NCBI GenBank assembly: GCA_032229905.1
Contig: JAVTWQ010000015.1
Span: 77,112 to 141,111 of the forward strand
Origin: Candidatus Saccharimonas sp.
GTDB lineage: Bacteria > Patescibacteriota > Saccharimonadia > Saccharimonadales > Saccharimonadaceae
Reading direction: 5' to 3'
DNA length: 64,000 nt
This document shows, one piece after another, positions 3,227-17,351 of the stretch. The first letter of the stretch is position 1, and each line of letters opens with the position of its first letter. The notes beneath the pieces are model-generated. The model did not search any database and was not told where the DNA came from. It was given only the letters and a program-made list of their open reading frames with translations. The translations under genes were made by a program, and so were the position numbers.

Positions 3227-3241
3227 GCAGCTTGAATCCCC

Positions 3242-3257
3242 CTAGTGGACGAATTTC
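3242..3257. repeat. CTAGTGGACGAATTTC box (partner of 4769-4784)
   Basis: 15 of 16 nt identical to 4769-4784. Both boxes sit in intergenic DNA bracketing the 3315..4701 gene pair. Confidence 0.5.
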
Positions 3258-3277
3258 GTAATATCTATGCATTAATA

Positions 3278-3306
3278 TTGACTATTCATCATACTTATGC
3301 TAATAT
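3278..3306 (+). promoter_or_regulatory. sigma70-type promoter giving a near-leaderless transcript for the 3315 gene
   Basis: TTGACT (3278-3283), a 17-nt spacer, then TAATAT (3301-3306). The ATG at 3315 is only 8 nt after the -10 box and there is no SD. Confidence 0.6.
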
Positions 3307-3314
3307 GATATCAA

Positions 3315-4196
3315 ATGATTGAAAAACAAACATACGCAATTGAAAAAGAAGATATCAAAGTCCCTAACCTCTCAAAGGGCGAGTCCGCAATCGTTTTCCA
3401 GCGCCACGGTAAATATGAACGCGACAAGGCAAGTCCAAGCAGCGGGTCAATTACTGAAGATGCTGTAGAAGATTTATCAGCGGATGGTAAGGCATTCTTT
3501 GACGAACTGCTCTCTAGCGAACAGAGCCCAGGAGATGTGATGGTCTTCTTCGTATCAAGTGACACGAAGTACGGTAAGGGCTACCGATCGATGGAAACGG
3601 CGCAAATCGCCGAAGATACTGCTATTGAAGCATTCCGTGCAGCGGGGCTTGATCCAAGTAAGCAGATCATAAACCTAAGTCCGGATTTCAAAACGAATGC
3701 CTTTGATAAAACAGGGCAGGCTGTTCGGCCAGATGCGAAGATCCATGAACCTGAGTTCTTAGATAATAGAGGCTACGTCCAATTCCTGAAGGATAAGTAT
3801 AGCGATGGTGAAATACTCACGCCTAAGGCATGGGCTATGCACGAAATGGATACCGACAAGGAAGTCCGCGAGGAACATGGAGCAGAAGGTGTCCATGATA
3901 TCGTCGAGCGAACTAAAAAATCTCTTGCTATTCTGGAGCGATATGCTCGAATCTTCCACGCAAACAATCCCGGCAAAAAACTGATTATCTGGGCTGCGTC
4001 ACATTACGATACGCTCAGCCCACTGGTAAAAGATGCTACCGGTACCGATTTTGGTGATTACCTTCCCGTGGACTATGGCGCTGGCATTACCATCGAATTA
4101 AAGAATGGCCAGACGCCAACATTTGAAGTTGCCGGAGAGCGGGTGGCGCTAAGCTTAGCGTCTGCCGCTGCTAAGGCTGTTGAGTCAAAGCTCTAG
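3315..4196 (+). CDS. histidine-phosphatase-superfamily-like protein (function uncertain)
   Basis: N-terminal IVFQRHGKYER resembles the RHG catalytic motif of the phosphoglycerate-mutase-like family. A later AASHYDT supplies a candidate second His. Assignment is by motif only. Confidence 0.4.
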   Translation: MIEKQTYAIEKEDIKVPNLSKGESAIVFQRHGKYERDKASPSSGSITEDAVEDLSADGKAFFDELLSSEQSPGDVMVFFVSSDTKYGKGYRSMETAQIAEDTAIEAFRAAGLDPSKQIINLSPDFKTNAFDKTGQAVRPDAKIHEPEFLDNRGYVQFLKDKYSDGEILTPKAWAMHEMDTDKEVREEHGAEGVHDIVERTKKSLAILERYARIFHANNPGKKLIIWAASHYDTLSPLVKDATGTDFGDYLPVDYGAGITIELKNGQTPTFEVAGERVALSLASAAAKAVESKL

Positions 4197-4701
4197 TTGC
4201 CTCTTCTATCGATTTATGGAGTGGGACACCGTGTTCGGTGTTCCACTTTTGGATAATCTCGATACCCTTTTTCAGCTGCTCGTGTTGGTCACTCGTTAGT
4301 CCACCATCGTAGCCATTTTCTTGGCGATTTTCGATTTGAGCCGTTAGTATGTCCCATTCTGGAATGACGATTGCATCGGGTTTTAGCCAGGAGTTGATAG
4401 AGGTCATGATCCAAAATCCCTTATCGACACATTGCTGTGTAATAACGTCGCATCGTTGCTCTACGCGCTCAATAACCGGCACACCTTGGTTCCACCAATC
4501 ATTTTTGGGTTGAGCCCCTGAGCCAGTAAGCACCGTGTCGCCATCGATCCAGTGCTGCTCCTCTTGTCTCGAGCAAAAATATGTCTTACCCGCTCCAGAC
4601 GGAGTCATAATAAATAACCCTTTTGGATGTTGGACGTACTTCTTACCTAACTCCTCGAAAAAACTCTCACCACTTGCATATATGACAGTATCGATATTCA
4701 T
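4171..4701 (-). CDS. small P-loop NTPase / kinase-like protein
   Basis: Walker A MTPSGAGKTYF. 176 aa. Convergently overlaps the previous gene by 26 nt. Confidence 0.55.
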   Translation of the reverse strand: MNIDTVIYASGESFFEELGKKYVQHPKGLFIMTPSGAGKTYFCSRQEEQHWIDGDTVLTGSGAQPKNDWWNQGVPVIERVEQRCDVITQQCVDKGFWIMTSINSWLKPDAIVIPEWDILTAQIENRQENGYDGGLTSDQHEQLKKGIEIIQKWNTEHGVPLHKSIEEATRALTQQP

Positions 4702-4707
4702 ATATTT

Positions 4708-4784
4708 ATCATAACAAAATACCCCAGAACAAACTGAGGTATTTTAATCATAAGCGTTTTGGCTCCGGCTAGTAGACGAATTTC
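4708..4784. repeat. intergenic repeat copy A: AT-rich hairpin, tRNA-Asn 3-prime-end mimic and a CTAGTAGACGAATTTC box
   Basis: About 58 nt (4708-4766) match 5342-5399 with about 6 mismatches. The hairpin is AAAATACC (4716-4723) / GGTATTTT (4738-4745). TTGGCTCCGGC (4759-4769) is identical to 15475-15485 (tRNA CCA end plus acceptor stem). CTAGTAGACGAATTTC (4769-4784) recurs at 3242-3257 with 1 mismatch. Confidence 0.75.
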
Positions 4785-4794
4785 AGAACACAGG

Positions 4795-5334
4795 CTACAA
4801 AGAACTAGGATTTACAGAGTCGATCGTCACGCTCACGTAAATTTTACTGATCTCGTTGCCTGTCAGAATAATTGGCTTATAGGCTTCTGCTTCTTTCGTG
4901 AGATAGTCCTGCCATTCCATGAATCCCTTGCGCTGTTCAGGTGTCTTTCCAAATGGATTTACGCGTTCTTGGCTTGAGAGATTATTTAGTAGCTCATCCT
5001 CATTCTTTTGCATGATGAAGATCTTTCCAAAGAGCCCGTAGCATTCGGCTACATTCTCTGCTGAACCACATAGGATAGCTTGAGGATTGTCACTCAGAAA
5101 CTGCTTTAACCTCTCGGGCTTCCAATACCAACCATATTTGGCATACCAATTGTCTTCGCCGTTATCTTTATGCTCTGCTACGGGGCCAAGTACCTCGCCT
5201 GTCTCGAACTCGCGCCACTCACAGAGACCTTCGAGTTCATCTGTATCGAAAAATCGATTATCTCCGACAGACTGGGCATACCGAACCAGTGTAGTTTTAC
5301 CGGAACCGGGTGTACCGGTAACGAGAATATTCAT
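4795..5334 (-). CDS. P-loop kinase-like protein (adenylate/shikimate-kinase-like fold)
   Basis: N-terminal MNILVTGTPGSGKTTLV Walker A right at the start, as in small nucleotide/nucleoside kinases. 179 aa. Confidence 0.55.
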   Translation of the reverse strand: MNILVTGTPGSGKTTLVRYAQSVGDNRFFDTDELEGLCEWREFETGEVLGPVAEHKDNGEDNWYAKYGWYWKPERLKQFLSDNPQAILCGSAENVAECYGLFGKIFIMQKNEDELLNNLSSQERVNPFGKTPEQRKGFMEWQDYLTKEAEAYKPIILTGNEISKIYVSVTIDSVNPSSL

Positions 5335-5341
5335 ACCATTA

Positions 5342-5411
5342 TGATAACAAAATACCCCAGAATTAACTGAAGTATTTTAACCATAAGCGTCTTGGCTCCC
5401 TACTATAGAGG
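5342..5411. repeat. intergenic repeat copy B: hairpin and tRNA-Asn 3-prime-end mimic, candidate left junction of the integrative element
   Basis: Matches copy A. TCTTGGCTCC (5390-5399) is identical to 15473-15482. CTTGGCTC-N6-ATAGAGG (5391-5411) recurs with the same spacing at 1893-1913. Confidence 0.7.
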
Positions 5412-5459
5412 CTGTCATAACTGCGATAAAGCAAGACCTAGCTGTTGTATAGTTGAACA

Positions 5460-5651
5460 ATGACAAGGATAAGCCCTGAACGCATTAAGGAATTACAGAA
5501 GCTTCTCAAGGAGCAAACCGGCAAAGATTACAGTAGTGAGGAGGCTCAAGAAGCAGGCCTAGCGATCATGCGTTTCGTGATAGCTAAAGAGCAGCGCAAG
5601 CAACAACTACAGTCAGAGGCCGAGCCCACGCAAGTTGAGGACAAAAACTAA
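5460..5651 (+). CDS. small helical protein, paralogue of 11899..12060
   Basis: 63 aa. The SPERIKELQKLLKEQTGKDYSSEEAQEAGLAIMRFV segment aligns with SVALVAEFQELHFKKFGEVISSEVAELELLSLAELI of the 53-aa ORF. TATAGT at 5448-5453 lies 6 nt before the ATG. Confidence 0.5.
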   Translation: MTRISPERIKELQKLLKEQTGKDYSSEEAQEAGLAIMRFVIAKEQRKQQLQSEAEPTQVEDKN

Positions 5652-5752
5652 GTAGGGCTTCGTTCGATGGAGGGGGGGTGGGCATGCCCACTTGGACTAT
5701 TACCCGTTTATACATCCCACCCGAAAACTTTTTGATTTTTTACCAAATTTTA

Positions 5753-8014
5753 TCAATCAAACTCTATAGGAGCTTGTGCTGCGGCGTAAATGTCTACTTG
5801 CGTTTCAACGTTAAGAGGCTCGACGAGCCAACCCCGGAGCTGACATTGCTGAACAAAGCTATCTATTCTATTCTTACCGTTTATCTCTTTTAATGTAGCG
5901 ACTACGCCGAATTTTATATCCTTGCCGTCACCGTTATTTAAGCGGTCGTTTGTCTTAACACTTAGACCCCAAAGTCCTTTTTCAAGCGCAACTTTTGACC
6001 TTGTTCTTGAAGTATATTTATCCTGAACCCTTTTTGTATTATCCCATTTTCGATAAAGTACACGTGCGTCCTTCTCGTTCACGGTAAATCTTTCTCCACT
6101 AAGAACTTGCTGCACGTTGCCGTTAATAGATTTAACGTATTTGCTGAGCTTGCCCTCTGCGATACGTCCAAAATATAGGTCTAACTCTGTGTTCGTATAG
6201 TCAACTCCTTGATTGATAGAACACTTAGGAAAATAACAAAGAGTTGCACGTGCAACAAAGGGATGGTGACCGTTCTCAACTGGCACGGGGAGGTTGTAGT
6301 TATAAGTGTCCCATTTTTTTGATGTACCGCTGATTATAAAGCGTATTTCATCATCGGATGACTTGACGATGTCGTTGATGTGAGTAGGCACAATGCCGTG
6401 GCCAATATAGGGTGCCATAGCATGATCGATTGTATTTGTATCCCATTTTGCTGCCGAGTCAATTATAAGCGCTTTTGCGACTTCTCTAGGTAAGCCAAGT
6501 ATATGGATTAGGTAGGCCAGCTTACGTGTTACCCAAGGGGCAGCGAATGATGTTCCTGCCTTGCTACCTGCCCAGTTATCTGGAGTGCAAACCGTAATAG
6601 AGTCTCGACCTTCACCACCCTGTGCACAAATATCAGGCTTATTGAAGAATGATAGGACGATACCTTTTCTTGAATACGATGCAGATGTGCCTGAAGAAGT
6701 GACTGAATTCACGACCACTGAGTTTATTGAGTCTGCGGGTGCACCGATAATTTTTTCTGAATCACCATCTAGGACACCCTTATTTGTGCCTGCAACTACG
6801 AAAATGATGTCATTAAACTCGTACTGAAGCTCGTCTAACATTGCAGCTTCGGGTGATATAGAGTTCCTGTTAATTTCTTTGTCAGACCCGAGTGACAAAT
6901 TCCAGACCTTTATATCGCGATGCTTCCTGACTATGTCGCGTATCAGCTTCATGACTGTAAATGAACTGAAGTTCTTTCCTGTAGCGACACCGAAATGTCT
7001 GACTCTGAATTTGCCACACCCGTCTTCTAGGTGGCGATTGAACGAGGGACCATCTACTATTATTGATGTGACGGCAGTTCCATGCACCGCATCATCTGAA
7101 GCCCGCGGAAGGTTTTCGTCCAACATGTCGTGGTATTCAACCCAGTCCTTAAAATAGACCTTATCGCTAAAAGCTTTATCTATAACACCTATCACTGGTT
7201 CGTCCCCGGGTGGTTCGATCGTAATGATGTTTTCCGTTACTTCATCATCAGTCGAGATGTCTACATCAAGACTGGTTTCTTCATCAGCCGACATGGCAAT
7301 CAGAAATGGCGCTTTTTCATTTAATATCTCTATTTCATTTTTTGAGAGCAATAAGGTTGACGTGTGGACTAGATTACCCGGCAAAATTTCAATCTCTAGC
7401 TTTTGCATGAGTTCAAAAATATCGAGTCCTGTATCGTAGATCGTCACGATGGAGTTCTGGCTTGTATCAACGGTTCTTTGAGGAATTCTAAAATTCTCAA
7501 TGTGATATGAATCAACAATAATATTAAGAAATGAGCTTTTCGAAAGACCATAATCGTCGTATATAATCGAGTCGTCCAGCTTATCAATTTGGTCATAGGT
7601 AATTTGACCATCGAAACGATCGTCGGCATCAAGTATTAACTTGGCATTTTCTAATTTTTCAATCGTTTTCTCTACGACAGATAGTTTATCGAGGTAGTGC
7701 GTAATTACATGCTTCTCGCCACCTTCAGTAAATCTAGCACCAACAACACTATCGTTTGCCTTTTTGCCGTTGCCTGAAAATAGGGCCTGAATCCGATTGC
7801 TTTTTGGCACTACCGTTCTGTACTCCACGTCAATAATCGCGCCGGGTAGCAGATCTTCTTTATCCCACCATTCAAGTGCTGACTTTAACTGTCGTATTAA
7901 TAGGTCGATGTGCTCTATTTTGACAAGCTCATTAGCGTGTATATTTCTTGGTCCGCCACCGGGTCCACGATCTTTTTGCTCAAGTCGATTACTCATTTGC
8001 AGGATGTTATTCAT
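5753..8014 (-). CDS. S8 (subtilisin-family) serine peptidase with large unassigned N- and C-terminal regions and no signal peptide
   Basis: Catalytic triad motifs occur in order: VIGVIDKAF (Asp), HGTAVTSII (His), GTSFAAPWV (Ser). The N-terminus MNNILQMSNRLEQKDRGPGGGPRN has no hydrophobic leader. The ATG (8014-8012) directly abuts the upstream gene's stop codon. Confidence 0.85.
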   Translation of the reverse strand: MNNILQMSNRLEQKDRGPGGGPRNIHANELVKIEHIDLLIRQLKSALEWWDKEDLLPGAIIDVEYRTVVPKSNRIQALFSGNGKKANDSVVGARFTEGGEKHVITHYLDKLSVVEKTIEKLENAKLILDADDRFDGQITYDQIDKLDDSIIYDDYGLSKSSFLNIIVDSYHIENFRIPQRTVDTSQNSIVTIYDTGLDIFELMQKLEIEILPGNLVHTSTLLLSKNEIEILNEKAPFLIAMSADEETSLDVDISTDDEVTENIITIEPPGDEPVIGVIDKAFSDKVYFKDWVEYHDMLDENLPRASDDAVHGTAVTSIIVDGPSFNRHLEDGCGKFRVRHFGVATGKNFSSFTVMKLIRDIVRKHRDIKVWNLSLGSDKEINRNSISPEAAMLDELQYEFNDIIFVVAGTNKGVLDGDSEKIIGAPADSINSVVVNSVTSSGTSASYSRKGIVLSFFNKPDICAQGGEGRDSITVCTPDNWAGSKAGTSFAAPWVTRKLAYLIHILGLPREVAKALIIDSAAKWDTNTIDHAMAPYIGHGIVPTHINDIVKSSDDEIRFIISGTSKKWDTYNYNLPVPVENGHHPFVARATLCYFPKCSINQGVDYTNTELDLYFGRIAEGKLSKYVKSINGNVQQVLSGERFTVNEKDARVLYRKWDNTKRVQDKYTSRTRSKVALEKGLWGLSVKTNDRLNNGDGKDIKFGVVATLKEINGKNRIDSFVQQCQLRGWLVEPLNVETQVDIYAAAQAPIEFD

Positions 8015-9070
8015 CTAAGCGCTCAGCTCTCTCGATACTTGGCTTTTTGACGTGCCGGTTATAACTTCAATTTCACGAACGGTGTAGCCTTGCTTCTGAA
8101 GCTTCTTTATATCTGGTTCACCTTGCTTTGTGTCATTTAAAGCTTCATATATTCTCCGCAAATAGTCATATTCACTGCCCGGATCACTAAAAGCAAGGGA
8201 GGTTTTTATGATATTCTTCAGGTCGCCTGGATATGGCAATCTATTACTAGATGCAAGAATCTTCCTGAATAGCCTGACGTTACGGCTTGCGAATTTAAAC
8301 CTTGTTAACAACTCAGAAAGTATGGCATCTGCTGAATTAATTAGATCATCTTGGCTATAGCGATTAAAGTTGATAACAGCATCAAATCTTCGCGCAAGTG
8401 CCTTATCAAACTGCTCGTATAAATTAGTTGTTGCGATCAATATGATTCTTTCATCTAGTCCATCCATAGCCTTCAAGAAAGAGGAAGTCACTCGACCCAT
8501 CTCTCTTACATCTCTCGAATTAATCCTATCGAGTGCGATGGCATCAATTTCATCAACCAAAACTATAACGCCCTCAGGGTGAGGTAATTTTCTTAACTCT
8601 TCGAAAACAGCGCTGATATTCTTTTGGGTCTCCCCAAGTCGACTGCTTATTAAGCTGTCGAAATCAATCATGTACAGGCTACGATCTAGGATTGAAGCAA
8701 TCTGCTTTACGCTCTCTGTTTTACCAGTACCAGGTACTCCTTCAAATAAAAACTTATGAATTCCAACGCCATGTCGGATAGAGTTCATGGCACCAACGAT
8801 ATCGCTTTCTATGGCAGCCGGAAGCGGAAGTGCTCCACCTGTATTGGTGTTCACTTTTACAAAGTATGGCATGTCATCGCTGTGCTCTTGCGGCGAGAAG
8901 GTATTAGCACCAGACATAACGGCCATAATGTACTCAGCTAACTGCGTATCTCCGATACTGTTAAAGTATCTTGCAATATCGTAAGCCTCAGCCCTAAAGC
9001 CAGCATCATTGTTCTCTGAATAGTACTTAATTAGGTTCAGGATATTTTTCTTTTTGATTGGTTCTTTCAT
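8015..9070 (-). CDS. AAA+ ATPase with a C-terminal helix-turn-helix-like tail
   Basis: Walker A GVPGTGKT, Walker B VLVDEIDA, sensor/Arg-finger region IATTNLYEQFDKALARRFD, and C-terminal GYTVREIEVITGTSKSQVSRELS. I place the start at the ATG at 9070 (MKEPIKKKN). The track start at 9106 is a TTG that lies inside the predicted -35 box. Confidence 0.8.
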   Translation of the reverse strand: MKEPIKKKNILNLIKYYSENNDAGFRAEAYDIARYFNSIGDTQLAEYIMAVMSGANTFSPQEHSDDMPYFVKVNTNTGGALPLPAAIESDIVGAMNSIRHGVGIHKFLFEGVPGTGKTESVKQIASILDRSLYMIDFDSLISSRLGETQKNISAVFEELRKLPHPEGVIVLVDEIDAIALDRINSRDVREMGRVTSSFLKAMDGLDERIILIATTNLYEQFDKALARRFDAVINFNRYSQDDLINSADAILSELLTRFKFASRNVRLFRKILASSNRLPYPGDLKNIIKTSLAFSDPGSEYDYLRRIYEALNDTKQGEPDIKKLQKQGYTVREIEVITGTSKSQVSRELSA

Positions 9071-9077
9071 ACTTTCT

Positions 9078-9118
9078 ATTGTATCAGTTCTGGGACATAG
9101 TAGCAATACTTTGGGACA
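9078..9118 (-). promoter_or_regulatory. promoter of the AAA+/S8 operon with two TGTCCCA direct repeats
   Basis: On the minus strand: TTGCTA (9106-9101), a 17-nt spacer, TACAAT (9083-9078), then 7 nt to the ATG at 9070. The heptamer TGGGACA (plus strand) occurs at 9091-9097 in the spacer and at 9112-9118 upstream of the -35, 21 bp apart. Confidence 0.5.
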
Positions 9119-9247
9119 AAAATGCCTTGTGGAAAAATATAAGCGGTGCTACTCTAGGTGTAGAAACGACGAGCCAATAGGCTCTGGATACAAAAAGCCA
9201 AATAAAACTCTGAGGGTCAAAATGAGTTAGAAAGGGGAACTTAAGGT

Positions 9248-9391
9248 ATGGCAGCAAGTCGCAAAACAAGCGCTCGCGTGGCAAAAGTAGCATCAAAAGT
9301 GCTTAGCTCACCGGGTAGCAGCAAGTCAGTCCGCAAAGTAGCTGCATCGGCACTATCGCAGCGGGCGCCGCAAAAACGCGGCAAAAAGTAA
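9248..9391 (+). CDS. small basic protein (47 aa), not in the ORF track
   Basis: My translation is MAASRKTSARVAKVASKVLSSPGSSKSVRKVAASALSQRAPQKRGKK. It is followed by a perfect 9-bp hairpin at 9440-9463. It is divergent from the AAA+/S8 operon. Confidence 0.35.
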   Translation: MAASRKTSARVAKVASKVLSSPGSSKSVRKVAASALSQRAPQKRGKK

Positions 9392-9439
9392 AATCGCCAG
9401 ATTTGCATTCGTTTAGGAGCGAGCAAACTGACGATCGTT

Positions 9440-9463
9440 GGGGTGATAATCAAATATCACCCC
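9440..9463 (+). terminator. stem-loop after the 47-aa ORF
   Basis: GGGGTGATA (9440-9448), a 6-nt loop, then TATCACCCC (9455-9463). No clear T-tract. Confidence 0.4.
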
Positions 9464-9496
9464 TCCAATATATCATATAAACCATTGGAGGATAAA

Positions 9497-9712
9497 ATGG
9501 CCTATTTCTATATTAACCGCAACGCTCAAGATGATGGATATCACGAAGTTCATGACGATAGCGCGAACTGTTCACACCCACCGCTACCCGAGAACCGTGT
9601 ACGCATAGGTTACTACAACACTTGTAGCCAGGCAATTGCCGCAGCACGAGCGGCTAACCCGACCTTGTCTATCGACGGCTGTTACTATTGCACCGATTGC
9701 CACACTCGCTAG
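9497..9712 (+). CDS. small Cys-rich protein (71 aa) of a widespread uncharacterised family
   Basis: MAYFYINRNAQDDGYHEVHDDSANCSH...DGCYYCTDCHTR. The start is chosen at 9497 because GGAGG lies 5 nt upstream. The C-terminal CxxCxxC-H cluster suggests metal binding. Confidence 0.55.
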   Translation: MAYFYINRNAQDDGYHEVHDDSANCSHPPLPENRVRIGYYNTCSQAIAAARAANPTLSIDGCYYCTDCHTR

Positions 9713-9725
9713 TCCTGGTTCGGGA

Positions 9726-9757
9726 GGAGTAGGATCTTCAAGTCGAGCTCCTACTCC
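9726..9757. terminator. hairpin between convergent genes
   Basis: GGAGTAGGA (9726-9734) pairs with TCCTACTCC (9749-9757). The T-tract is weak. Confidence 0.45.
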
Positions 9758-9778
9758 TTACCGCACCATGGGTCGTGC

Positions 9779-10402
9779 TTAACGGCCAGCAAGGCTTGGA
9801 TTAATCACGTAACCTGCTGCGGTTAGTATCTTTTTATTTTGAAATTTATGCTTGGATTTAACGAAATTTGCAAACAATGGATGGGTGGTCATCATATACT
9901 TTACGTAGCTACCGTCCGAGTGCTGCGCCCTATCATCCGGGCCAGCAGCTAGACGACTGCCTCTGGCTTTGCCTGTAGTCATAAATTCCGTTGCTTCTGC
10001 CTCAGTCAACTTTGAGTTTTCAGAAGCACGCATGTACGTACCTTTTATCTGAGATTTGTAACAAGCGGCTACTGCATATATAAACGCATTCTGGAACAAA
10101 GCAAGGTACTCAGCTTTGCGATCGCTTTCATTAAAATCTTTGAGCATAAATCCTTGTACAAATTCTTCGGGGTCGTGTTTAACGAGAATACCGAGTGAAT
10201 ATATTGTCCTGAGTGTTTCGCGCTCTTTGACACCCATTTGAAGTACGAGTGCTCCCATTACATCTACAAAGCTAAAAAATGAGTTCTGAAATACTTGCTG
10301 GAAGTGCTTACTGTGTTGTACATCTTCTAGGATGCTACCTGTAAGGCTGTACTTATTACCAATGTGCATTTTATTAAGTGTCGGTCGAGTCTTCATATCC
10401 AT
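9779..10402 (-). CDS. hypothetical protein (207 aa), first gene leftward of the switch region
   Basis: Long ORF with GGAGA 9 nt upstream of the ATG. No motif I can assign. Confidence 0.55.
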   Translation of the reverse strand: MDMKTRPTLNKMHIGNKYSLTGSILEDVQHSKHFQQVFQNSFFSFVDVMGALVLQMGVKERETLRTIYSLGILVKHDPEEFVQGFMLKDFNESDRKAEYLALFQNAFIYAVAACYKSQIKGTYMRASENSKLTEAEATEFMTTGKARGSRLAAGPDDRAQHSDGSYVKYMMTTHPLFANFVKSKHKFQNKKILTAAGYVINPSLAGR

Positions 10403-10445
10403 TTTCGTTATCTCCTAATTAGTAAGGATGCCGAAAATAAAAAAC

Positions 10446-10461
10446 GACACCGCAAGGTGTC
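10446..10461. promoter_or_regulatory. operator-like palindrome O1
   Basis: GACAC-cgcaag-GTGTC, extending to GTGTCTAG. It shares the GACAC/GTGTC half-sites with 10608-10630. Confidence 0.45.
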
Positions 10462-10607
10462 TAGCCATTCACAAGTCAGTGTTAACCAAAATGCTTATGC
10501 GGTGCCGATTTTAACGGTTAACCGCAAAGAACATTTGCGTTCTGACTTAAATAATAGCTAGACTATTTGATTATATCATCGGTATGTCTTTTAGTTAGGT
10601 TGAACTT

Positions 10608-10630
10608 TGTAGACACTTACGGTGTCTACA
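10608..10630. promoter_or_regulatory. operator-like perfect palindrome O2
   Basis: TGTAGACAC (10608-10616), ttacg, then GTGTCTACA (10622-10630): perfect 9-bp arms. Confidence 0.55.
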
Positions 10631-10718
10631 ACTTGTTGTAGCAATATCAACATATATATTACCCCTAAAACAGAGGTGAGCTAATGTCTACAAAACGTGT
10701 AATTAACAGATGTGAGCT

Positions 10719-10738
10719 TGTAGACACTTACGTGTCAC
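10719..10738. promoter_or_regulatory. operator-like site O3 (one full half-site and one partial)
   Basis: TGTAGACAC (10719-10727), ttac, then GTGTCAC. An additional half-site, aTGTCTACA, lies at 10684-10692. Confidence 0.45.
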
Positions 10739-10820
10739 CTATTCGAAAAATAAATTCACGAACGCTAAAACACTCTTATGTTTTGGCTTTTGTTAGCAAT
10801 ATTAGATAATTAGTCTAATT

Positions 10821-11579
10821 ATGAAAATGAATATGATCGCTGGATTGCCACCTACAAAATTGATTAATAAATTTGTGTCTAAGCAAGCCCTCGATACTTA
10901 CTTCAAAGCTCCATCCATCGAAAAACTAATAATGGACTTACGAAAGCTAAGGAGAAGCGGCTACTTAGATTTTAACGTAAGGGTTAGCGCTGAGTATTTT
11001 GAATGGCAGCGTGATCGCATTGACCTAAAAATACGTGCAGATGTTCTACGCCACCCTGATCCGTTCGGCATAGCCTACAATGACGAATATGGATTAAGTG
11101 CACTACGCGATGATACAGACCAAGGTAAGCCACTCAGCGAGCAAGAGATCATAAAAGTGATATCTACCCTACCGAGTGATGTCGCGGAGAAATATCTTGA
11201 AATACAGATTTGTAATTTAGATCGCGACGAAATGAAAAAATTAATACCAAAAGCAAAACAAAAAAAGCGACATGAAGATATTGAGTATAAAGGACTTAAG
11301 ATCAGTAATGCTCGTGTTACATACCTCGACCAGCAGATCGACATGCAATTCAGAGAGATAGAAGCACTACGTATTTTTATGCAAAAGTACGAATCACTGG
11401 TGCCAGCGAACGATTTTATATCTAATCCTGATATATTTAGCCCAAAAAAAGAATATCCTTACCCTCATAAGACATGCAGTAAACTGGTGCACGATATCAG
11501 TAAAAAGCTGTCAGCATCAGTGGGTCAGAAGTGTATTTATAATCAACCCCTAGATGGTTGGAGGTTGAAGATCGCCTAG
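10821..11579 (+). CDS. hypothetical protein (252 aa), first gene rightward of the switch region
   Basis: Long ORF ending in TAG followed by TAA, with a strong terminator after it. No recognisable motif. Confidence 0.55.
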   Translation: MKMNMIAGLPPTKLINKFVSKQALDTYFKAPSIEKLIMDLRKLRRSGYLDFNVRVSAEYFEWQRDRIDLKIRADVLRHPDPFGIAYNDEYGLSALRDDTDQGKPLSEQEIIKVISTLPSDVAEKYLEIQICNLDRDEMKKLIPKAKQKKRHEDIEYKGLKISNARVTYLDQQIDMQFREIEALRIFMQKYESLVPANDFISNPDIFSPKKEYPYPHKTCSKLVHDISKKLSASVGQKCIYNQPLDGWRLKIA

Positions 11580-11603
11580 TAATTTGCAACTGAAAACTGA
11601 ATG

Positions 11604-11635
11604 AACGCCTCTTCGTATTCTGAAGAGGCGTTTTA
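11604..11635 (+). terminator. rho-independent terminator
   Basis: AACGCCTCTTC, a 7-nt loop, GAAGAGGCGTT, then TTTT. Confidence 0.8.
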
Positions 11636-11653
11636 AATATTTGGAGGATGTAA

Positions 11654-11845
11654 ATGAATGAAAAACAGACGTTAAAGATAAGGGATCTTGGATTGGCCGC
11701 TGCTTTAGTCAGTCTTGGACACGACATGTGTGCCACAGATCGTGATACGAATGGTCGTTCTTATTTCATATTCTTACAAACAGAAATGCTTGAGCGCGAC
11801 GTAAATGGCTACTGGGCTGACACACTCGATGTAAAAGCACGGTAG
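11654..11845 (+). CDS. DUF5659-like small protein, ending at an in-frame TAG that may truncate the domain
   Basis: MNEKQTLKIRDLGLAAALVSLGHDMCATDRDTNGRSYFIFLQTE..ERDVNGYWAD resembles DUF5659 as I remember it. GGAGG lies 7 nt upstream. The same frame continues after the TAG as YFDDIKMLKSRIYGER to a second TAG at 11894-11896. Confidence 0.55.
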   Translation: MNEKQTLKIRDLGLAAALVSLGHDMCATDRDTNGRSYFIFLQTEMLERDVNGYWADTLDVKAR

Positions 11846-11898
11846 TACTTTGACGATATCAAAATGCTGAAGTCGCGGATTTACGGCGAGCGTTAGTC

Positions 11899-12060
11899 AT
11901 GAGGCTCAGCGTAGCTTTAGTAGCAGAGTTTCAAGAACTGCACTTCAAAAAGTTCGGCGAGGTGATCTCGTCTGAGGTCGCTGAGCTAGAGCTACTAAGT
12001 CTTGCTGAGCTAATACGAATTACCCAACCTATGAAAACTAAGGAGATCGAAGATGAATAA
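11899..12060 (+). CDS. small helical protein (53 aa), paralogue of 5460..5651, not in the ORF track
   Basis: My translation is MRLSVALVAEFQELHFKKFGEVISSEVAELELLSLAELIRITQPMKTKEIEDE. Its stop overlaps the next gene's start (ATGAATAA). Confidence 0.45.
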   Translation: MRLSVALVAEFQELHFKKFGEVISSEVAELELLSLAELIRITQPMKTKEIEDE

Positions 12061-13651
12061 AGAAATGGAAGCTACTAAAAATACGCCCAAAAATAACAAA
12101 GATAAATCAATCAAGAATAAAGACAGTGATAACTCGACGCCAAAGCCAGCAGATGGCCACATTCCTCACACTCAAGCACTCATTAAAGCTATTGAAGCCA
12201 GTGATGCCGTGCTGTTTCACGACCAGTACCACGACACATACATTGCTTACGACGGCAATGGCAGTAACGTCAGTAAGATCAATTCAAAGATCAGTAAACT
12301 TTGGCTGACAGGCTATGGCTACTCAAGTCTAAATAGTGTTCTTACACCCGATACAATTAATCGCGTATTACAGACACTGTCTGCCAATGCGCATTTTCAA
12401 GGCAAACAATATCCTTTAGGTGTTCGCAGTGTTCATAACAGTGAAGGATTATGGTACGACCTCGGAGCAAGTGCAGTACATATAACTGAAAGCGGGTGGA
12501 TGATTACGGACAGACCACCTATTGTCTTTAAGCGGTTCCCTCACCAGAAAGCTCAGGTTACGCCTGTGCGTGGTGGCGATCTGCGGTTACTGCTCAAGTA
12601 CATCAACATCACCAATGAAGCTGAACAGTTATTGTTTCTTGTTTATGTGGTGGCAGCATTCATTCCTGACTATCCTCACCCATTGCTGATACTGCATGGA
12701 GCGCAAGGAGCTGGTAAAACGACACCCATGCGTGTAATGAAGGAGTTGATTGACCCTTCAGAACTAGGTGGTTCATCAGCACCGAAAAATATTGAAGTTT
12801 TTGTACAAACAATTAGTCACCACTCTTTTATGTTTTACGATAACTTATCAAAAATGCATGAATGGTTCTCTGATGCACTAGCTAGGGCTGCGACCGGTGA
12901 TAGCTTTAGCAAGCGTGAACTGTACACCGATGACGACGACGTTATTTATAGATTTCAGAAGACGATTGCGTTGAATGGCATTAATCAAGTTGTTTACAAA
13001 TCGGACTTACTTGACCGCTCAATCTTACTGAACCTTGAGCGTATTAGTCCTGAGAAACGCAAAGAGGCGCAAGTTTTTTGGACTGAATTTGAACTTGACC
13101 GACCACTAATACTTGGTGCTATTTTTGACGTGCTAGTTGAAGCCCTCGCGCTTTACCCGAAAACTAAGCTAGGAAAGTTGCCTCGCATGGCTGACTTTGC
13201 CCGCTGGGGTTACGTTATCGCAGAATCATCGGGATTCAGTGGCGAAGCATTCATAAAAGCGTATTCCAATAATATTGCCGTGCAACATGATGAAGCAATC
13301 GAAGCCAACCCTGTAGCGCAAACTATCATGGAGTTTATGCGTGACTGCAATGAATGGGAAGGTACACCAGCTCAGCTATACAGTTTACTAACTCCTATAG
13401 CGTACAGACTCCAGATTGGCCAGAGTCGAGGCTGGCCAAAAGATGCCGCTCGTCTTGGCAGAGCGCTTACACCTATAGCACCTAATCTAAATGCCAAAGG
13501 TGTTGATTTAGAGCGTTCACGCAGTAAAGACCGGCTGATCACTATAAGCAAATCTACTGTCATTACCGACGATGCTGACGTATCAGAGAGCAAACTAACT
13601 GATGGTGATGACGGTACGACGGTAACGTCAGTACAAGGAGAGCTGTTATGA
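12053..13651 (+). CDS. P-loop ATPase of the mobile-element replication type (D5/primase-associated helicase-like), function tentative
   Basis: Walker A LHGAQGAGKTT in the middle of a 532-aa protein. AAGGAG RBS. Its position just upstream of the recombinase is typical of island replication or initiation proteins. Confidence 0.45.
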   Translation: MNKEMEATKNTPKNNKDKSIKNKDSDNSTPKPADGHIPHTQALIKAIEASDAVLFHDQYHDTYIAYDGNGSNVSKINSKISKLWLTGYGYSSLNSVLTPDTINRVLQTLSANAHFQGKQYPLGVRSVHNSEGLWYDLGASAVHITESGWMITDRPPIVFKRFPHQKAQVTPVRGGDLRLLLKYINITNEAEQLLFLVYVVAAFIPDYPHPLLILHGAQGAGKTTPMRVMKELIDPSELGGSSAPKNIEVFVQTISHHSFMFYDNLSKMHEWFSDALARAATGDSFSKRELYTDDDDVIYRFQKTIALNGINQVVYKSDLLDRSILLNLERISPEKRKEAQVFWTEFELDRPLILGAIFDVLVEALALYPKTKLGKLPRMADFARWGYVIAESSGFSGEAFIKAYSNNIAVQHDEAIEANPVAQTIMEFMRDCNEWEGTPAQLYSLLTPIAYRLQIGQSRGWPKDAARLGRALTPIAPNLNAKGVDLERSRSKDRLITISKSTVITDDADVSESKLTDGDDGTTVTSVQGELL

Positions 13652-13690
13652 CTATGGATTGTCATCAAAAACATAAAGAGCTATAATGCG

Positions 13691-13797
13691 ATTGTTGACA
13701 CAATCCATAAAACACGCGCAGAGTGTTTTTATTTCCCGACCCAAAATGGGCGGCCGGTATCAGGAAATGGCTTTGCGCTATGGACTGTGTCAACAAC
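13691..13797. repeat. 19-bp inverted repeat pair upstream of the recombinase gene
   Basis: ATTGTTGACACAATCCATA (13691-13709) is the reverse complement, at 17 of 19 positions, of TATGGACTGTGTCAACAAC (13779-13797). A third partial copy, TATGGATTGT, lies at 13653-13662. Confidence 0.6.
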
Positions 13798-13825
13798 CGG
13801 CCGTCCTTTTTGATGGAGATAAAAT

Positions 13826-15517
13826 ATGAATAAACGTGAACTAAAATATCTACGCTATAGGCTTTACGCTCGCAAGTCTACTGATACAGAAGATAAGCAA
13901 GTGCAGTCGCTTGATGACCAAATTAAGTACATGACAGAAGTTGCGCAACGCGAGGGCTTGCATATTGTTGGCGAGCCAATTCGTGAGAGTCAGTCAGCTA
14001 AGCGGCCTGATGTTCGACCTAAGTTTAGAGCTTTACTAGAAGAAATTGAAGACGGAAATATTGACGGTATTATTTGTTGGAAATTAGACCGTTTATCACG
14101 TAACCCTGCCGATAGTGGCCGGATCCAACAACTGCTACAGGACGGCAAACTGCAACACATTCAAACTACCGAGAAAAGCTATTTTCCAGAAGATAACGCT
14201 ATCGTGTTTAGCGTTGAGGCCGGAATGTCTAACCAGTATATTCGTGAGTTAGCGACTAACACAAAACGCGGTATGCGATCTAAGGCAGAAAAAGGTGATA
14301 AACCTGGCGTACCACCTCCAGGCTATCTGAATGATAGGCTTAATAAAGTAATCGTCACTGACCCCGAAAACTTTACCCTGATACGTGTTCTGTGGGACAA
14401 AATGCTTACTGGTACTTATTCAATGGCGAAGCTTGCAGAAATTGCAGACAAAGAACTCAATATTCGCACACCAGTACGCGGCAAGACTGGTGGTAAACCT
14501 ATCGCTTACTCCAGCCTTTGTGTATTGTTCAAAAACCCGTTCTACACGGGTAAGCTGCTCTTTAACGGCGCAATATATGACGGCAATCATCCAGCCATGA
14601 TCACTGAAGAGGAGTTTGAACGAGTCCAACAAATCATTGACCCAGTTCATACAACTCGACCAAAGGACAGAACATATGACTTCCAACTACGTAACCTCTT
14701 TAAGTGTGGTGAATGTAATTTTGCCATAACCGCAGAGAGAAAGTATAAGAATATAAAATCTACTGGTGAACGTAAGGAATATATTTACTATCACTGCACT
14801 GGCAAGAATAAGCAGACTAAATGCAATCAGCCCCATCTACATGTTGCAGAAGACGAACTAATCAGACAGATCAAAGAAAAATTATCCAAATATACTATTG
14901 ACCCTGCTTTCTATCAACTTGCTATCAAAGCTCTTGCGGAAGAAGAAGATGAAGTTGTTGCGAAAGATCATGCAAAGACCAGTAGCAGAGACAATGCTAT
15001 CGAGAAAGCCAATCAAGCTATCGCTAACTTGCGCCGCATGCGTTATAACGGTGAGGCCGATGACGATGCTTGGTACTTTGCTGAGATGACTAGCCTAGAG
15101 AAGAACTTAGAAGCACTACAGAAAGACCGCAATAAGGCGGAATACAAAGCTCGCAACTGGCGTGAGGTAGCAGACGAGGTATTTAGCTTTGCTCGATACG
15201 CCAAAGAAGACTTTGACGGTGACGATTTAGAGAAGAAGCGTACTGTTATCATCAAGCTTGGAGAGAAGCTGTCAATTTTGGATAGAACCATACAGTTCAC
15301 CCCTAATAAATACTTCATTCCTATCGAAAAAATGAATGATGCGCTGAATAATGCTCAAAACATGGTTAGAACCGAAAATAGCACTGAAAATATAGCCCTA
15401 AAAAGCAAAAAGACCCCTGTTGGGTCTCTTGCTGTACCTAATGAGTCGACATCCCTCTTGGATGCAAATACATCTTGGCTCCGGCAGCTGGGCTCGAACC
15501 AGCGACCTAATCGTTAA
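13826..15517 (+). CDS. large serine recombinase (integrase)
   Basis: Resolvase-type N-terminus YARKSTDTEDKQVQSLDDQ and KLDRLSRN, a recombinase domain, a zinc ribbon (CGECNF...YYHCTGKNKQTKC) and a long coiled-coil tail. GGAG RBS. The last 42 nt overlap tRNA-Asn in antisense. Confidence 0.85.
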   Translation: MNKRELKYLRYRLYARKSTDTEDKQVQSLDDQIKYMTEVAQREGLHIVGEPIRESQSAKRPDVRPKFRALLEEIEDGNIDGIICWKLDRLSRNPADSGRIQQLLQDGKLQHIQTTEKSYFPEDNAIVFSVEAGMSNQYIRELATNTKRGMRSKAEKGDKPGVPPPGYLNDRLNKVIVTDPENFTLIRVLWDKMLTGTYSMAKLAEIADKELNIRTPVRGKTGGKPIAYSSLCVLFKNPFYTGKLLFNGAIYDGNHPAMITEEEFERVQQIIDPVHTTRPKDRTYDFQLRNLFKCGECNFAITAERKYKNIKSTGERKEYIYYHCTGKNKQTKCNQPHLHVAEDELIRQIKEKLSKYTIDPAFYQLAIKALAEEEDEVVAKDHAKTSSRDNAIEKANQAIANLRRMRYNGEADDDAWYFAEMTSLEKNLEALQKDRNKAEYKARNWREVADEVFSFARYAKEDFDGDDLEKKRTVIIKLGEKLSILDRTIQFTPNKYFIPIEKMNDALNNAQNMVRTENSTENIALKSKKTPVGSLAVPNESTSLLDANTSWLRQLGSNQRPNR

Positions 15518-15550
15518 CAGCGATCCGCTCTACCACTGAGCTATGCCGGA
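15476..15550 (-). tRNA. tRNA-Asn (anticodon GTT) with encoded CCA
   Basis: Folded by hand. Acceptor TCCGGCA/TGCCGGA; D-arm GCTC-AGTGGTA-GAGC; anticodon arm GATCG-CTGTTAA-CGATT (one G-U pair); variable loop AGGTC; T-arm GCTGG-TTCGAGC-CCAGC; discriminator G; CCA. Confidence 0.9.
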
Positions 15551-15653
15551 ATAATGTGCCCCCAACTGGTGTTGGTACAAATGGTAGTTTATCGCAATTT
15601 TAATCTGTTGTAAAGACTCATGCGCCGGGCTTAGGCCACAAATAACCCTGCAC

Positions 15654-17351
15654 TTAACGAATTTGCTCTAGCTGGCGAGTGAGATCGGCTATAGCCGACC
15701 AGCTGCTGCCATCGGTCATGACTGCCAGGACATACGTGCCTTTAGGGCCATAAACGATCGCCGCGTCGTGCAATAAACCATCCATGAACCCAACCTTATC
15801 GGCCACCTGCCCGCTAGCCCCAGCTGGTATACCCTGGCGGTAAACGTTACCAAGCATGGCGTTAGTAAGCCGCTGCCTACTCAAATCGCTAAACATCGTG
15901 CCACTTTCGAGCGTGCCTAGGTAAACAACCAGGTCATCGGCCGTAGTAAACGGCCCACCGGTTGTCGTGAAATTAGAGTCCATTAAGCCCAGGCTGTGGA
16001 TATCATTAGTCACGTTTTTAAGCCCGACGCTGTACAAAAATGCCTCTGCGCAAGCATTGTCGCTCAAGCTTATCATCTTATTAAAGCAGGCCTGGTTATC
16101 ATCCCAGCTCATCTGGCCGGCTTCTACCCGCTTTAAAACGCTGTAGGCCACAAATAATTTGTAGGTACTGGCCGTTACAAACTGCTTGTCGCCCTGGTAG
16201 CTCGCGAACCGGCGGTCTCCATACAGTTCGGCGTAAGATATGCCAAAAGTGCCTGGGTGATCAGTGGCATAGTTTTTAAATAATGCATTTAAGCCCTCAT
16301 CGGTTGAGCTATAGGTACGGATATAGCTGATATTAGCTGGTACTACCATAGTAGCGGCCATAGCCGTGCTACCAGTACCGTGTAGTACAGCGTTAATTGC
16401 AGCAGTGGTCTTATCGATATCAAGGGCCTGACCATTGCCGCCACCGCTACGCGACACCTCTGCAAAATCCAACGTAGTGATAGTAATAGTGCTGGGTGCT
16501 ACCGCCACTTTTGGCGCGATGTTCTTATCCATATAATCCTTAGCCTTGCTGGTGCTCACGCTCACCTCAACCTTGTTCGCACTAGGCGTAAAATCGAGCC
16601 AAGAATAAACATCGGCTGGCGCTAATACTACATTTTGCCCACTAACATTTAACGTAACGCCCAATTTCACCTGGGCCATGTACTGTTCCGCGCTAGCCTT
16701 AGCTACATCATCTTGAACAGCTGGCTTTAGTATTTTCATACTTATGCGCGCCGTAACTGGCTTTGTTAGGCTCGGCGTAATAGCCGCTAGCTCCTGTTTA
16801 ACGGTTTGTGGGTCACATTCGCCACCGTCCTTAGCCGGAACTACCTCTAGTTTGTCGCCATTTGCCTTTAAAGTGGCATCTTGTGGCGCTACTTGGCGCT
16901 GCTTTAATAAGCCCGAAATAAATTCATCGGTTTTTGCGCTACTGGTGGCGGCTGGTGGCGAACCTGCGCTATTGGCCCAAAAGAGCGAAGCCGGCACGAA
17001 CCTGAGCCACAACGGGTACTGTGCCGCATTTATCCTAGCTGTATTATCAACTACAATGCCAGCTTGATCTAGCGTAGGAGTGCTGACTGGATCGGGCTTA
17101 TCGCCAAGGTAAACCGCTAATGTACGGCGGCTATAGTCTCCGTTAAGGGTTTGTGCCGCCTCGGCTCGTGTCTTCGCTCCAACGGCAACGTTATCAATAT
17201 TTTGTAACGGCAGCAGCCTATCAGCTGGGTACAGTAACTGCACGGCAATCAAACCAACAACAAGCACAAGGCTAGTAATTATGCCGATACGCGGCCACGG
17301 TAGTGCGGCAAGCCAGTTGAGCCCACTCTGCGCTCGCTCCCTAAATCTCAT
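15654..17351 (-). CDS. membrane-anchored serine hydrolase with a class-A beta-lactamase / DD-peptidase fold at the C-terminus
   Basis: N-terminal TM (IGIITSLVLVVGLIAVQLL). The C-terminal domain has SxxK (ASTYK), SDN (LSDNACAE) and a KTG-like motif (DKVGFMDG). Confidence 0.65.
   Translation of the reverse strand: MRFRERAQSGLNWLAALPWPRIGIITSLVLVVGLIAVQLLYPADRLLPLQNIDNVAVGAKTRAEAAQTLNGDYSRRTLAVYLGDKPDPVSTPTLDQAGIVVDNTARINAAQYPLWLRFVPASLFWANSAGSPPAATSSAKTDEFISGLLKQRQVAPQDATLKANGDKLEVVPAKDGGECDPQTVKQELAAITPSLTKPVTARISMKILKPAVQDDVAKASAEQYMAQVKLGVTLNVSGQNVVLAPADVYSWLDFTPSANKVEVSVSTSKAKDYMDKNIAPKVAVAPSTITITTLDFAEVSRSGGGNGQALDIDKTTAAINAVLHGTGSTAMAATMVVPANISYIRTYSSTDEGLNALFKNYATDHPGTFGISYAELYGDRRFASYQGDKQFVTASTYKLFVAYSVLKRVEAGQMSWDDNQACFNKMISLSDNACAEAFLYSVGLKNVTNDIHSLGLMDSNFTTTGGPFTTADDLVVYLGTLESGTMFSDLSRQRLTNAMLGNVYRQGIPAGASGQVADKVGFMDGLLHDAAIVYGPKGTYVLAVMTDGSSWSAIADLTRQLEQIR

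Follow-up and report, generated by a model that had tools for sequence, protein, structure and literature searches.

A 64-kb stretch of Candidatus Saccharimonas sp. DNA (contig JAVTWQ010000015.1; the whole stretch of 64,000 nucleotides (nt) is referred to here as the window) carries on its minus strand two abutting genes, whose products are an AAA+ ATPase and a protease of the S8 (subtilisin-like) family. The pair very probably represents a two-gene toxin–antitoxin (TA)/abortive-infection module of the IetAS family that belongs to the clade of the A132/T133 proteins of Mycoplasma mycoides and forms the cargo of a 10.1-kb element at a tRNA-Asn gene (estimated probability about 0.88). The observations behind this assignment are family membership, intact catalytic motifs, a predicted cytoplasmic protease, strict pairing of the two genes across genomes, and the mobile-element context. 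The two genes are:

8015–9070, minus strand: ietA, 351-amino acid (aa) AAA+ ATPase, TAG stop at 8015–8017 included; the proposed antitoxin/regulator partner
5753–8014, minus strand: ietS, 753-aa S8 subtilase with an ATG start; the proposed toxin/effector partner

Both proteins are recognized by profile hidden Markov models (HMMs) of the IetAS system. With PADLOC, four IetA models match the window ATPase (E-values 1.1e-19 to 1.6e-40), and PDLC02196 (E = 1.6e-40) aligns protein residues 105–349 with profile positions 123–368 of 374. Seven IetS models match the protease; PDLC02197 (E = 2.7e-61) covers protein residues 241–741 and profile positions 223–748 of 749. The top NCBIfam matches are “anti-phage ATPase IteA” for the ATPase and “S8 family anti-phage peptidase IteS” for the protease, the latter covering residues 226–740. 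IetAS is defined operationally here by matches to both HMM families, by adjacency with the ATPase gene upstream, and by intact active sites, and all of these are found in the window pair.

The protein sequences of A132 and T133 of M. mycoides were translated from the S6 File of PMC8562856 and compared with the window proteins by BLASTP. IetA displays 49% identity to A132 over 346 aa (E = 3e-120; residues 5–346 against 1–343), and IetS displays 38% identity to T133 end to end (E = 8e-173; residues 1–753 against 1–757). The pair therefore falls within a clade that has already been characterized and already been compared with IetAS.

The original prediction for this locus, made from the sequence without database searches, had described a conflict module composed of an NTPase and a protease, which family membership bears out, and had termed it a candidate undescribed system. 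The second part does not stand: assignment to a named system by an HMM scan had been stated beforehand as a result that would refute it, and the PADLOC scan gave IetA and IetS, with which NCBIfam and A132/T133 agree. The pair is a member of the already named IetAS TA/anti-phage family and not an undescribed system. A previously undescribed AAA+/subtilase conflict system is very improbable. In its favor are the N-terminal domains of both proteins, which are unassigned in Pfam and the PDB and give no alignment with other IetAS clades, and the scores under the NCBIfam equivalog cut-offs. However, the matches to the IetA and IetS models are strong, that of the protease runs through both the catalytic and the C-terminal domains, and the A132/T133 clade is already characterized and has been explicitly compared with IetAS.

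A TRIP13/HORMA regulator of the type associated with CBASS (cyclic oligonucleotide-based anti-phage signaling system) was also considered for the ATPase and rejected, as TRIP13 models give a weaker match (E = 9.8e-16) than the four IetA models. Pfam and PADLOC scans revealed neither a HORMA nor a cyclase gene in the element.

In the protein collection searched, relatives of IetS number more than 7,000. The closest named relatives are from Ca. Saccharimonadales (76% identity), and full-length relatives with about 50% identity are found in Patescibacteria, Bacillota, Actinomycetota, Mycoplasmatota and Campylobacterota. In the species-genome collection, at least 575 matched stretches encode a relative. 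Co-occurrence of the two genes, on which the original prediction depended, is strict: a full-length IetA homologue (52%–87% identity) ends 3–23 nt before IetS at 77 of 78 genome loci that have room upstream of IetS.

The sole exception (locus L074, positions 8001–10112) has an IetS that lacks the first ~42 residues and shows no upstream IetA despite 8 kb of room. This copy may be decayed or an orphan.

The neighbors of the pair were surveyed at 35 loci by taking the two nearest open reading frames (ORFs) on each side, 139 in total. The survey is descriptive and has no control set. The commonest families are serine recombinases, type I and type III restriction subunits, DNA methylases, SNF2 and DEAD helicases, Fic and GmrSD. 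None of these ORFs recurs as a constant third partner of ietAS. On a Clostridium perfringens plasmid, the pair follows ~1.5 kb downstream of parA/parB and is separated from them by two hypothetical genes; the M. hyorhinis pair adjoins type III methylase genes.

At the locus of the closest relative (L004), an ORF with a phospholipase D (PLD)-like nuclease domain lies ~1 kb upstream of ietA at positions 5403–5882 (Pfam PLDc_2, E = 7.6e-10; PADLOC MkoC-like, E = 4.4e-13).

The distribution of the pair bears on one further explanation, namely that it is a housekeeping cytoplasmic peptidase with an ATPase partner for protein turnover, as in the metabolic model of JCVI-syn3A (ietS/0133). The eLife minimal-cell model does place ietS/0133 among four peptidases that are assumed to split imported peptides. 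Against this, in homologues the protease is toxic if expressed by itself, and the ATPase is essential only with the protease present; in addition, the pair has a scattered distribution, with horizontal transfer on plasmids and integrative elements, and the window pair itself is inside a mobile element. A housekeeping role is thus hardly probable at all.

The TAG stop codon of ietA (8017–8015) directly abuts the ATG of ietS (8014–8012), and the minus-strand arrangement originally described is confirmed in the sequence. The upper coordinate proposed for the ATPase, 9118, is incorrect: the codon at 9118–9116 is TGT, which is no start, and the real start is the ATG at 9070–9068. The N-terminus that results, MKEPIKKKNILNLIKY (beginning MKEPIKK), lines up with the N-termini of 20 homologues, and gene callers give the same 351-aa product on two other contigs. 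An in-frame stop directly before the ATG rules out a longer ietS reading frame, and with it a hidden signal peptide.

ietA and ietS share a reading frame, with the single TAG between them. Readthrough at positions 8012–8017 would yield an IetA–IetS fusion protein. The spacing is not kept at other loci (gaps of 3–23 nt), and the shared frame is probably incidental.

One possible control signal is situated upstream of ietA:

9078–9106, minus strand: promoter-like site, TTGCTA, 17-nt spacer and TG-TACAAT, just upstream of the ietA ATG, found with a consensus scan

It is considered a candidate promoter only, because the number of promoter-like sites around ietA is no higher than in shuffled sequences.

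IetA has the following parts:

8912–9052, minus strand: N-terminal three-helix bundle, residues ~7–53 (AlphaFold2 (AF2) helices at 7–18, 22–38 and 42–53)
8363–8749, minus strand: AAA+ core with Walker A G111–T118, Walker B D173/E174, sensor-1 N216 and R227/R228 (Pfam and alignment)
8021–8110, minus strand: C-terminal helix-turn-helix (HTH)-like three-helix tail, residues ~321–350 (AF2 helices at 321–326, 331–338 and 342–350; predicted local distance difference test (pLDDT) score ~85–89)

The AAA domain (PF00004) is detected by Pfam at residues 108–236 (E = 1.2e-26). GVPGTGKT is found at residue 111, VLVDEIDA at 170, ATTN at 213 and ARRF at 226, and residues K117, T118, D173, E174, N216, R227 and R228 are invariant in an alignment of 21 homologues. 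IetA is a classic-clade AAA+ protein by both fold and sequence. A PDB profile search yields AFG2, Cdc48 and p97, and Foldseek with the AF2 model yields Rpt subunits, Vps4, FtsH, Rix7 and spastin. The PDB sequence search showed no relatives of IetA or IetS beyond generic AAA+ and subtilisin matches.

The AF2 model (pLDDT 79.6) displays the N-terminal bundle, a poorly ordered linker, the AAA+ core with its lid, and the C-terminal tail. The bundle is conserved within the clade as judged from the alignment, and the low-confidence linker that follows it extends to about residue 84. The PADLOC and NCBIfam IetA matches begin at about residue 105 and leave the bundle uncovered. The tail, on the other hand, is within the PADLOC profile match (to profile position 368 of 374), and R332, E335, T338 and S341-K-S343 are invariant in the clade. 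The tail may bind DNA.

The position of pore loop 1 in IetA is occupied by S143-R-L-G-E-T148, and the pattern across the clade is S-[R/K/H]-L-G-[E/Q]-[T/S], with the aromatic residue absent. In contrast, the Agrobacterium-type IetA has an aromatic pore loop, SYLG in place of SRLG.

IetS is made up of three parts:

7280–8014, minus strand: N-terminal alpha/beta domain, residues 1–245 (AF2 pLDDT 70–93 for residues 23–242)
6425–7207, minus strand: subtilase domain, residues 270–530 (Pfam, invariant triad, Foldseek)
5756–6424, minus strand: C-terminal domain, residues 531–753, common to other IetS clades; the predicted fold is poor

Pfam Peptidase_S8 matches residues 270–530 with an E-value of 6.8e-33, and the triad residues D279, H311 and S489, together with N411, are invariant among 19 homologues. 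Foldseek matches to this domain are subtilisins, proteinase K and PagA (E ~1e-7). There is no signal peptide or transmembrane segment in IetS: the N-terminus is hydrophilic and the maximum Kyte-Doolittle mean over 19 residues is 1.28. IetS is thus predicted to be cytoplasmic.

These data support most of the anatomy that had been read from the sequence initially. The AAA+ motifs and the D/H/S triad are all present and invariant in homologues; the HTH-like tail of the ATPase is seen as the three helices at residues 321–350; and the low hydropathy of the protease, together with the stop that precludes a better start, upholds the statement that it has no signal peptide or transmembrane segment. 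The unassigned flanks are real, as Pfam matches only residues 108–236 of IetA and 270–530 of IetS, but the C-terminal flank of the protease is ~223 aa long and not ~190 aa.

An AF2 model of IetS based on 19 sequences has a mean pLDDT of 56.5. The N-domain is predicted well and the subtilase moderately, and the last ~230 residues score below 50. When the whole IetS model was used with Foldseek, the top 50 matches were to subtilisin domains only. The C-terminal domain does align with the PADLOC and NCBIfam IetS profiles to their C-termini. A propeptide-like module before the catalytic domain was also considered. The pro-enzymes 3whi_B, 3qfh and 3t41 align over 400–430 columns with a root mean square deviation greater than 20 Å, and such a module is not claimed.

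The N-terminal domains of IetA and IetS have no Pfam assignment, and that of IetS has no sequence match in the PDB. In IetS, it is followed by an acidic disordered linker (residues 243–264). An exhaustive search with residues 1–245 against 1.84 billion representatives yielded 353 matching cluster representatives. Among the 150 matches listed, the domain starts at or near residue 1, in proteins that are ~730–770 aa long or shorter. Ten of the shorter proteins were scanned; eight have an S8 domain, which in most continues up to the C-terminus, whereas Pfam has no match in the other two (292 and 346 aa). Thus, among the proteins scanned, the identified partner of the IetS N-domain is always S8. 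The N-domains of IetA and IetS may be the sensing or regulatory parts of the system.

The pair is situated in an integrative element:

5390–15482, no strand assigned: integrative element of ~10.1 kb with ietAS, bounded by the 10-nt direct repeat TCTTGGCTCC
13826–15517, plus strand: large serine recombinase, 563 aa (Pfam Resolvase, Recombinase and Zn_ribbon_recom); the 3′ end overlaps tRNA-Asn
15476–15550, minus strand: tRNA-Asn (GTT), the integration target (ARAGORN; Rfam tRNA, 69.6 bits)

The sequence TCTTGGCTCC is present exactly twice in the window, at 5390–5399 and 15473–15482, where 0.11 occurrences are expected by chance. Two matches were found in 0 of 100 shuffles. The copy at 15473–15482 spans the 3′ end of tRNA-Asn. 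From these borders, the element is therefore ~10.1 kb long and ietAS makes up about one third of it. The three recombinase domains, the target tRNA gene and the flanking repeats are those of a large-serine-recombinase integrative element; NCBIfam matches of the recombinase are XisF- and Ccr-like and below cut-off.

The recombinase, the tRNA-Asn gene and the direct-repeat borders substantiate the proposal that the pair is cargo of an integrative element, and the proposed size of 10 kb and share of one third were correct. The element had also been described as AT-rich. This is marginal (42.5% GC in the element vs 44.7% in the rest of the window), and because the difference is only ~2 percentage points it provides weak evidence.

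ietAS is the only recognizable cargo of the element. The other ORFs include only two small ones with PHROG matches and a weak match to DUF5659 below the Pfam cut-off, and none has a PADLOC match. ORFs 9779–10402, 10821–11579 and 12053–13651 have no Pfam, PHROG, NCBIfam or PADLOC match. Of the integration, replication and regulation genes originally read in the rest of the element, the recombinase is the one that these scans bear out. The ORF at 5460–5651, just inside the left repeat, has a homologue within a related element that is described below.

The setting of the pair is relevant to a second role that has to be weighed. The pair may be mainly an addiction (post-segregational killing) module that stabilizes the 10-kb element, and not a phage-defense system. 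IetAS was first described as the stability/incompatibility TA of pTiC58, as cited in PMC13069673; the only experiments with the clade, in mycoplasmas, show TA behavior; the C. perfringens plasmid pair is close to parA/parB; and ietAS is the sole recognizable cargo of a small element. On the other hand, other IetAS members give phage protection by abortive infection, and neighbors elsewhere are often restriction-modification or other defense genes. Addiction and defense are not exclusive, and this explanation is compatible with the assignment of the pair to IetAS. As the main role of the pair, addiction is a possibility of some weight, if less likely than not.

As an IetAS module, the pair could function as follows. 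IetS would be a cytoplasmic subtilase that is lethal when unrestrained. IetA, made just upstream from the same transcript, would keep it harmless, probably in an IetA–IetS complex and probably with a need for ATP. Through its HTH-like tail, IetA may anchor the complex on DNA or regulate its own operon. IetS would be freed when a phage protein disturbs the restraint, or when loss of the element ends the resupply of IetA. Freed IetS would then cut host proteins, and perhaps phage proteins, leading to growth stop or death; the outcome would be an aborted infection or the punishment of element loss. Toxicity and neutralization of the protease, lethality of ATPase deletion, anti-phage activity with abortive infection, a phage trigger and the need for protease activity are known from homologues and may extend to the window pair by analogy. 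The parts of the scheme that we infer are the formation of a complex, a restraint that in this clade depends on ATP, the binding of the tail to DNA, and which substrates are cut.

Several points weigh against assigning the pair to IetAS and giving it this function. The NCBIfam scores are 112.2 bits for IteA vs an equivalog cut-off of 510, and 150.5 bits for IteS vs a cut-off of 900. Because these are far below the cut-offs, the window pair appears by sequence to be a distant IetAS clade and not an equivalog of the NCBIfam seed members. The N-domains of both window proteins show no alignment to the Agrobacterium-type pair or to the first 61 residues of the Bacillus cereus IetA. Trigger sensing in the window clade may therefore differ, since its N-domains do not align with those of other clades. 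Because the pore loop is without an aromatic residue, threading by IetA is not a safe assumption, and an unfoldase action is uncertain. The AF2 model of the IetS C-terminal domain is poor. In the literature searched, phage-challenge reports for the window clade were not found, and its record consists of TA behavior only. Finally, expression and activity of the pair in this organism would be predictions from its genes, whereas TA132/133, the M. mycoides pair, has been studied experimentally.

A more speculative reading, and a rather unlikely one, is that this widespread clade (Patescibacteria, Bacillota, Mycoplasmatota and Campylobacterota) constitutes a mechanistically distinct IetAS subtype, possibly one in which a DNA-tethered ATPase senses phage replication and licenses the protease and is not a simple antitoxin. 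It is suggested by the private N-domains, the joining of the IetS N-domain only to S8 where a partner is identified, the conserved HTH-like tail and the non-aromatic pore loop.

Other features of the element and of its surroundings are as follows. Upstream of ietA on the opposite (plus) strand, positions 9248–9391 encode a 47-aa basic protein (phrog_5079, E = 8.5e-8) and positions 9443–9712 an 89-aa Cys/His-rich protein (phrog_4298, E = 2.7e-20). Homologues of these small ORFs adjoin ietA at two other loci (L004 and L005). The largest remaining ORF, 12053–13651 (532 aa), has a Walker-A-like motif, GAQGAGKT, and may be the replication protein of the element.

A perfect 15-nt direct repeat, TTGTAGACACTTACG, is found at 10607 and 10718, inside the 420-bp gap between the divergent ORFs 9779–10402 and 10821–11579 (region 10607–10732). 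An 11-bp hairpin includes the first copy. These repeats may serve the element as operators or as origin repeats. Just upstream of the recombinase gene, the intergenic region 13660–13825 has a 21-nt inverted repeat (13689–13709/13779–13799, 90% complementary) and folds far better than shuffled sequences (-32.1 kcal/mol, z = -5.1). This could be a regulatory or recombination-related structure.

Outside the left border, two paralogous small P-loop ORFs are found on the minus strand at 4171–4701 and 4795–5334. Each is preceded (in plus coordinates) by a 73-nt direct repeat, at 4694–4766 and 5327–5399, and the two repeats are 88% identical. They end in copies of the tRNA-Asn 3′ end, TTGGCTCCGGC at 4759–4769 and TCTTGGCTCC at 5390–5399. 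A more degenerate copy is present at 3232–3257. The region 3232–5399 has the appearance of what is left from earlier tandem insertions at this tRNA-Asn site.

The related element mentioned above is found in a second Ca. Saccharimonadales metagenome-assembled genome (locus L064, positions 6886–15855). Its serine recombinase gene runs into tRNA-Gly(CCC), and an ietAS pair of its own is present, with a protease that is 48% identical and in the opposite orientation relative to the recombinase, as well as homologues of three small or medium ORFs of the window element.

Elsewhere in the window, dnaA is at 55483–56844 and dnaN at 57111–58211, so that the chromosomal replication-origin region of a Saccharimonadales genome is probably included. 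The DnaA protein shares 72%–75% identity with its counterparts in Ca. Saccharimonas and other Saccharibacteria, the group from which all named matches come.

Several consequences follow. The pair can be annotated as IetAS, where the public records seen read “AAA family ATPase” and “S8 family peptidase”. For one very widespread clade, the mycoplasma TA literature and that on anti-phage IetAS are brought together. The window also indicates that small serine-recombinase elements at tRNA genes bring such modules into the reduced genomes of Saccharibacteria. A connection between ietAS and Saccharibacteria integrative elements was not found among the top-ranked papers of a targeted literature search, and, if correct, this would be the first defense or addiction cargo documented on mobile elements of episymbiotic Saccharibacteria within the literature searched. 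The residual interest is in the unsolved IetAS mechanism, the clade-specific N-domains and the occurrence on Saccharibacteria integrative elements. The proteins of the clade are compact and well conserved, and with their clade-specific N-domains they are possible material for structural work. Genetic tools for Patescibacteria have been reported (PMC10633639).

The window pair can be compared with four known systems. The first, ietHAS, consists of IetAS together with an SNF2 helicase (PMC13069673). It has the IetA/IetS core in common with the window pair but differs in the helicase, as there is no helicase gene beside the pair in the window. SWI2/SNF2 genes account for 3 of the 139 neighboring ORFs at other loci.

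The second is the stability/incompatibility TA of the Agrobacterium plasmid pTiC58, which is IetA/IetS (Yamamoto et al. 2009, as cited in PMC13069673). According to the same citation, IetAS was first described in this 2009 work as a plasmid-stability TA in which the toxin is a serine protease and its antitoxin an ATPase. Like it, the window pair couples a serine protease as proposed toxin with an AAA-ATPase as proposed antitoxin and is carried on a mobile replicon. The sequences were compared with a pair from a related Agrobacterium plasmid and not from pTiC58 itself. The Agrobacterium-type IetS aligns with residues 270–708 of the window IetS with ~24% identity, and the IetA aligns over the AAA core only. 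Because no other parts align, the N-domains of the window proteins are regarded as clade-specific.

The third comparison is to anti-phage IetAS, reported as an anti-phage system in 2020 (Gao et al., as cited in PMC13069673 and in bioRxiv 10.1101/2022.08.27.505566). The ietAS of B. cereus m1293 acts by abortive infection, and its trigger is YosG of phage SPbeta (bioRxiv 10.1101/2022.08.27.505566). Protease activity is needed for IetAS defense, an ietA mutant could not be constructed, and the mechanism is still unknown according to this 2026 paper (PMC13069673). Both anti-phage IetAS and the window pair are two-gene operons with an AAA+ ATPase upstream of a cytoplasmic (in the window, predicted) S8 protease, belong to the same PADLOC and NCBIfam families, and are consistent with abortive-infection or TA logic. 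They differ in that alignment is confined to the AAA core of the ATPase and to two domains of the protease, the catalytic and the C-terminal; no similarity is detected between the N-terminal domains. For the B. cereus m1293 IetA, the comparison covers a 61-aa N-terminal fragment only (~400 bases of insert), which gives an hhalign E-value of 0.16 against the clade and no matches in plasmids.

The closest system is TA132/133 of Mycoplasma mycoides subsp. capri. T133 is toxic and is neutralized by A132, deletion of A132 only is lethal in JCVI-syn2.0, and homologues from three other mycoplasmas are functional as well (PMC8562856). The hosts differ, one a member of the Mycoplasmatota and the other of the Saccharibacteria, and the window pair, unlike TA132/133, is on a serine-recombinase element at a tRNA gene. 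In other respects there is a close similarity. A132 and T133 are 353 and 757 aa long, nearly equal to the 351 and 753 aa of the window proteins, and the gene order is the same. A mobile, patchy distribution is common to TA132/133 and the window clade, and the homology takes in both N-terminal domains as well as the C-terminal tail of the ATPase.

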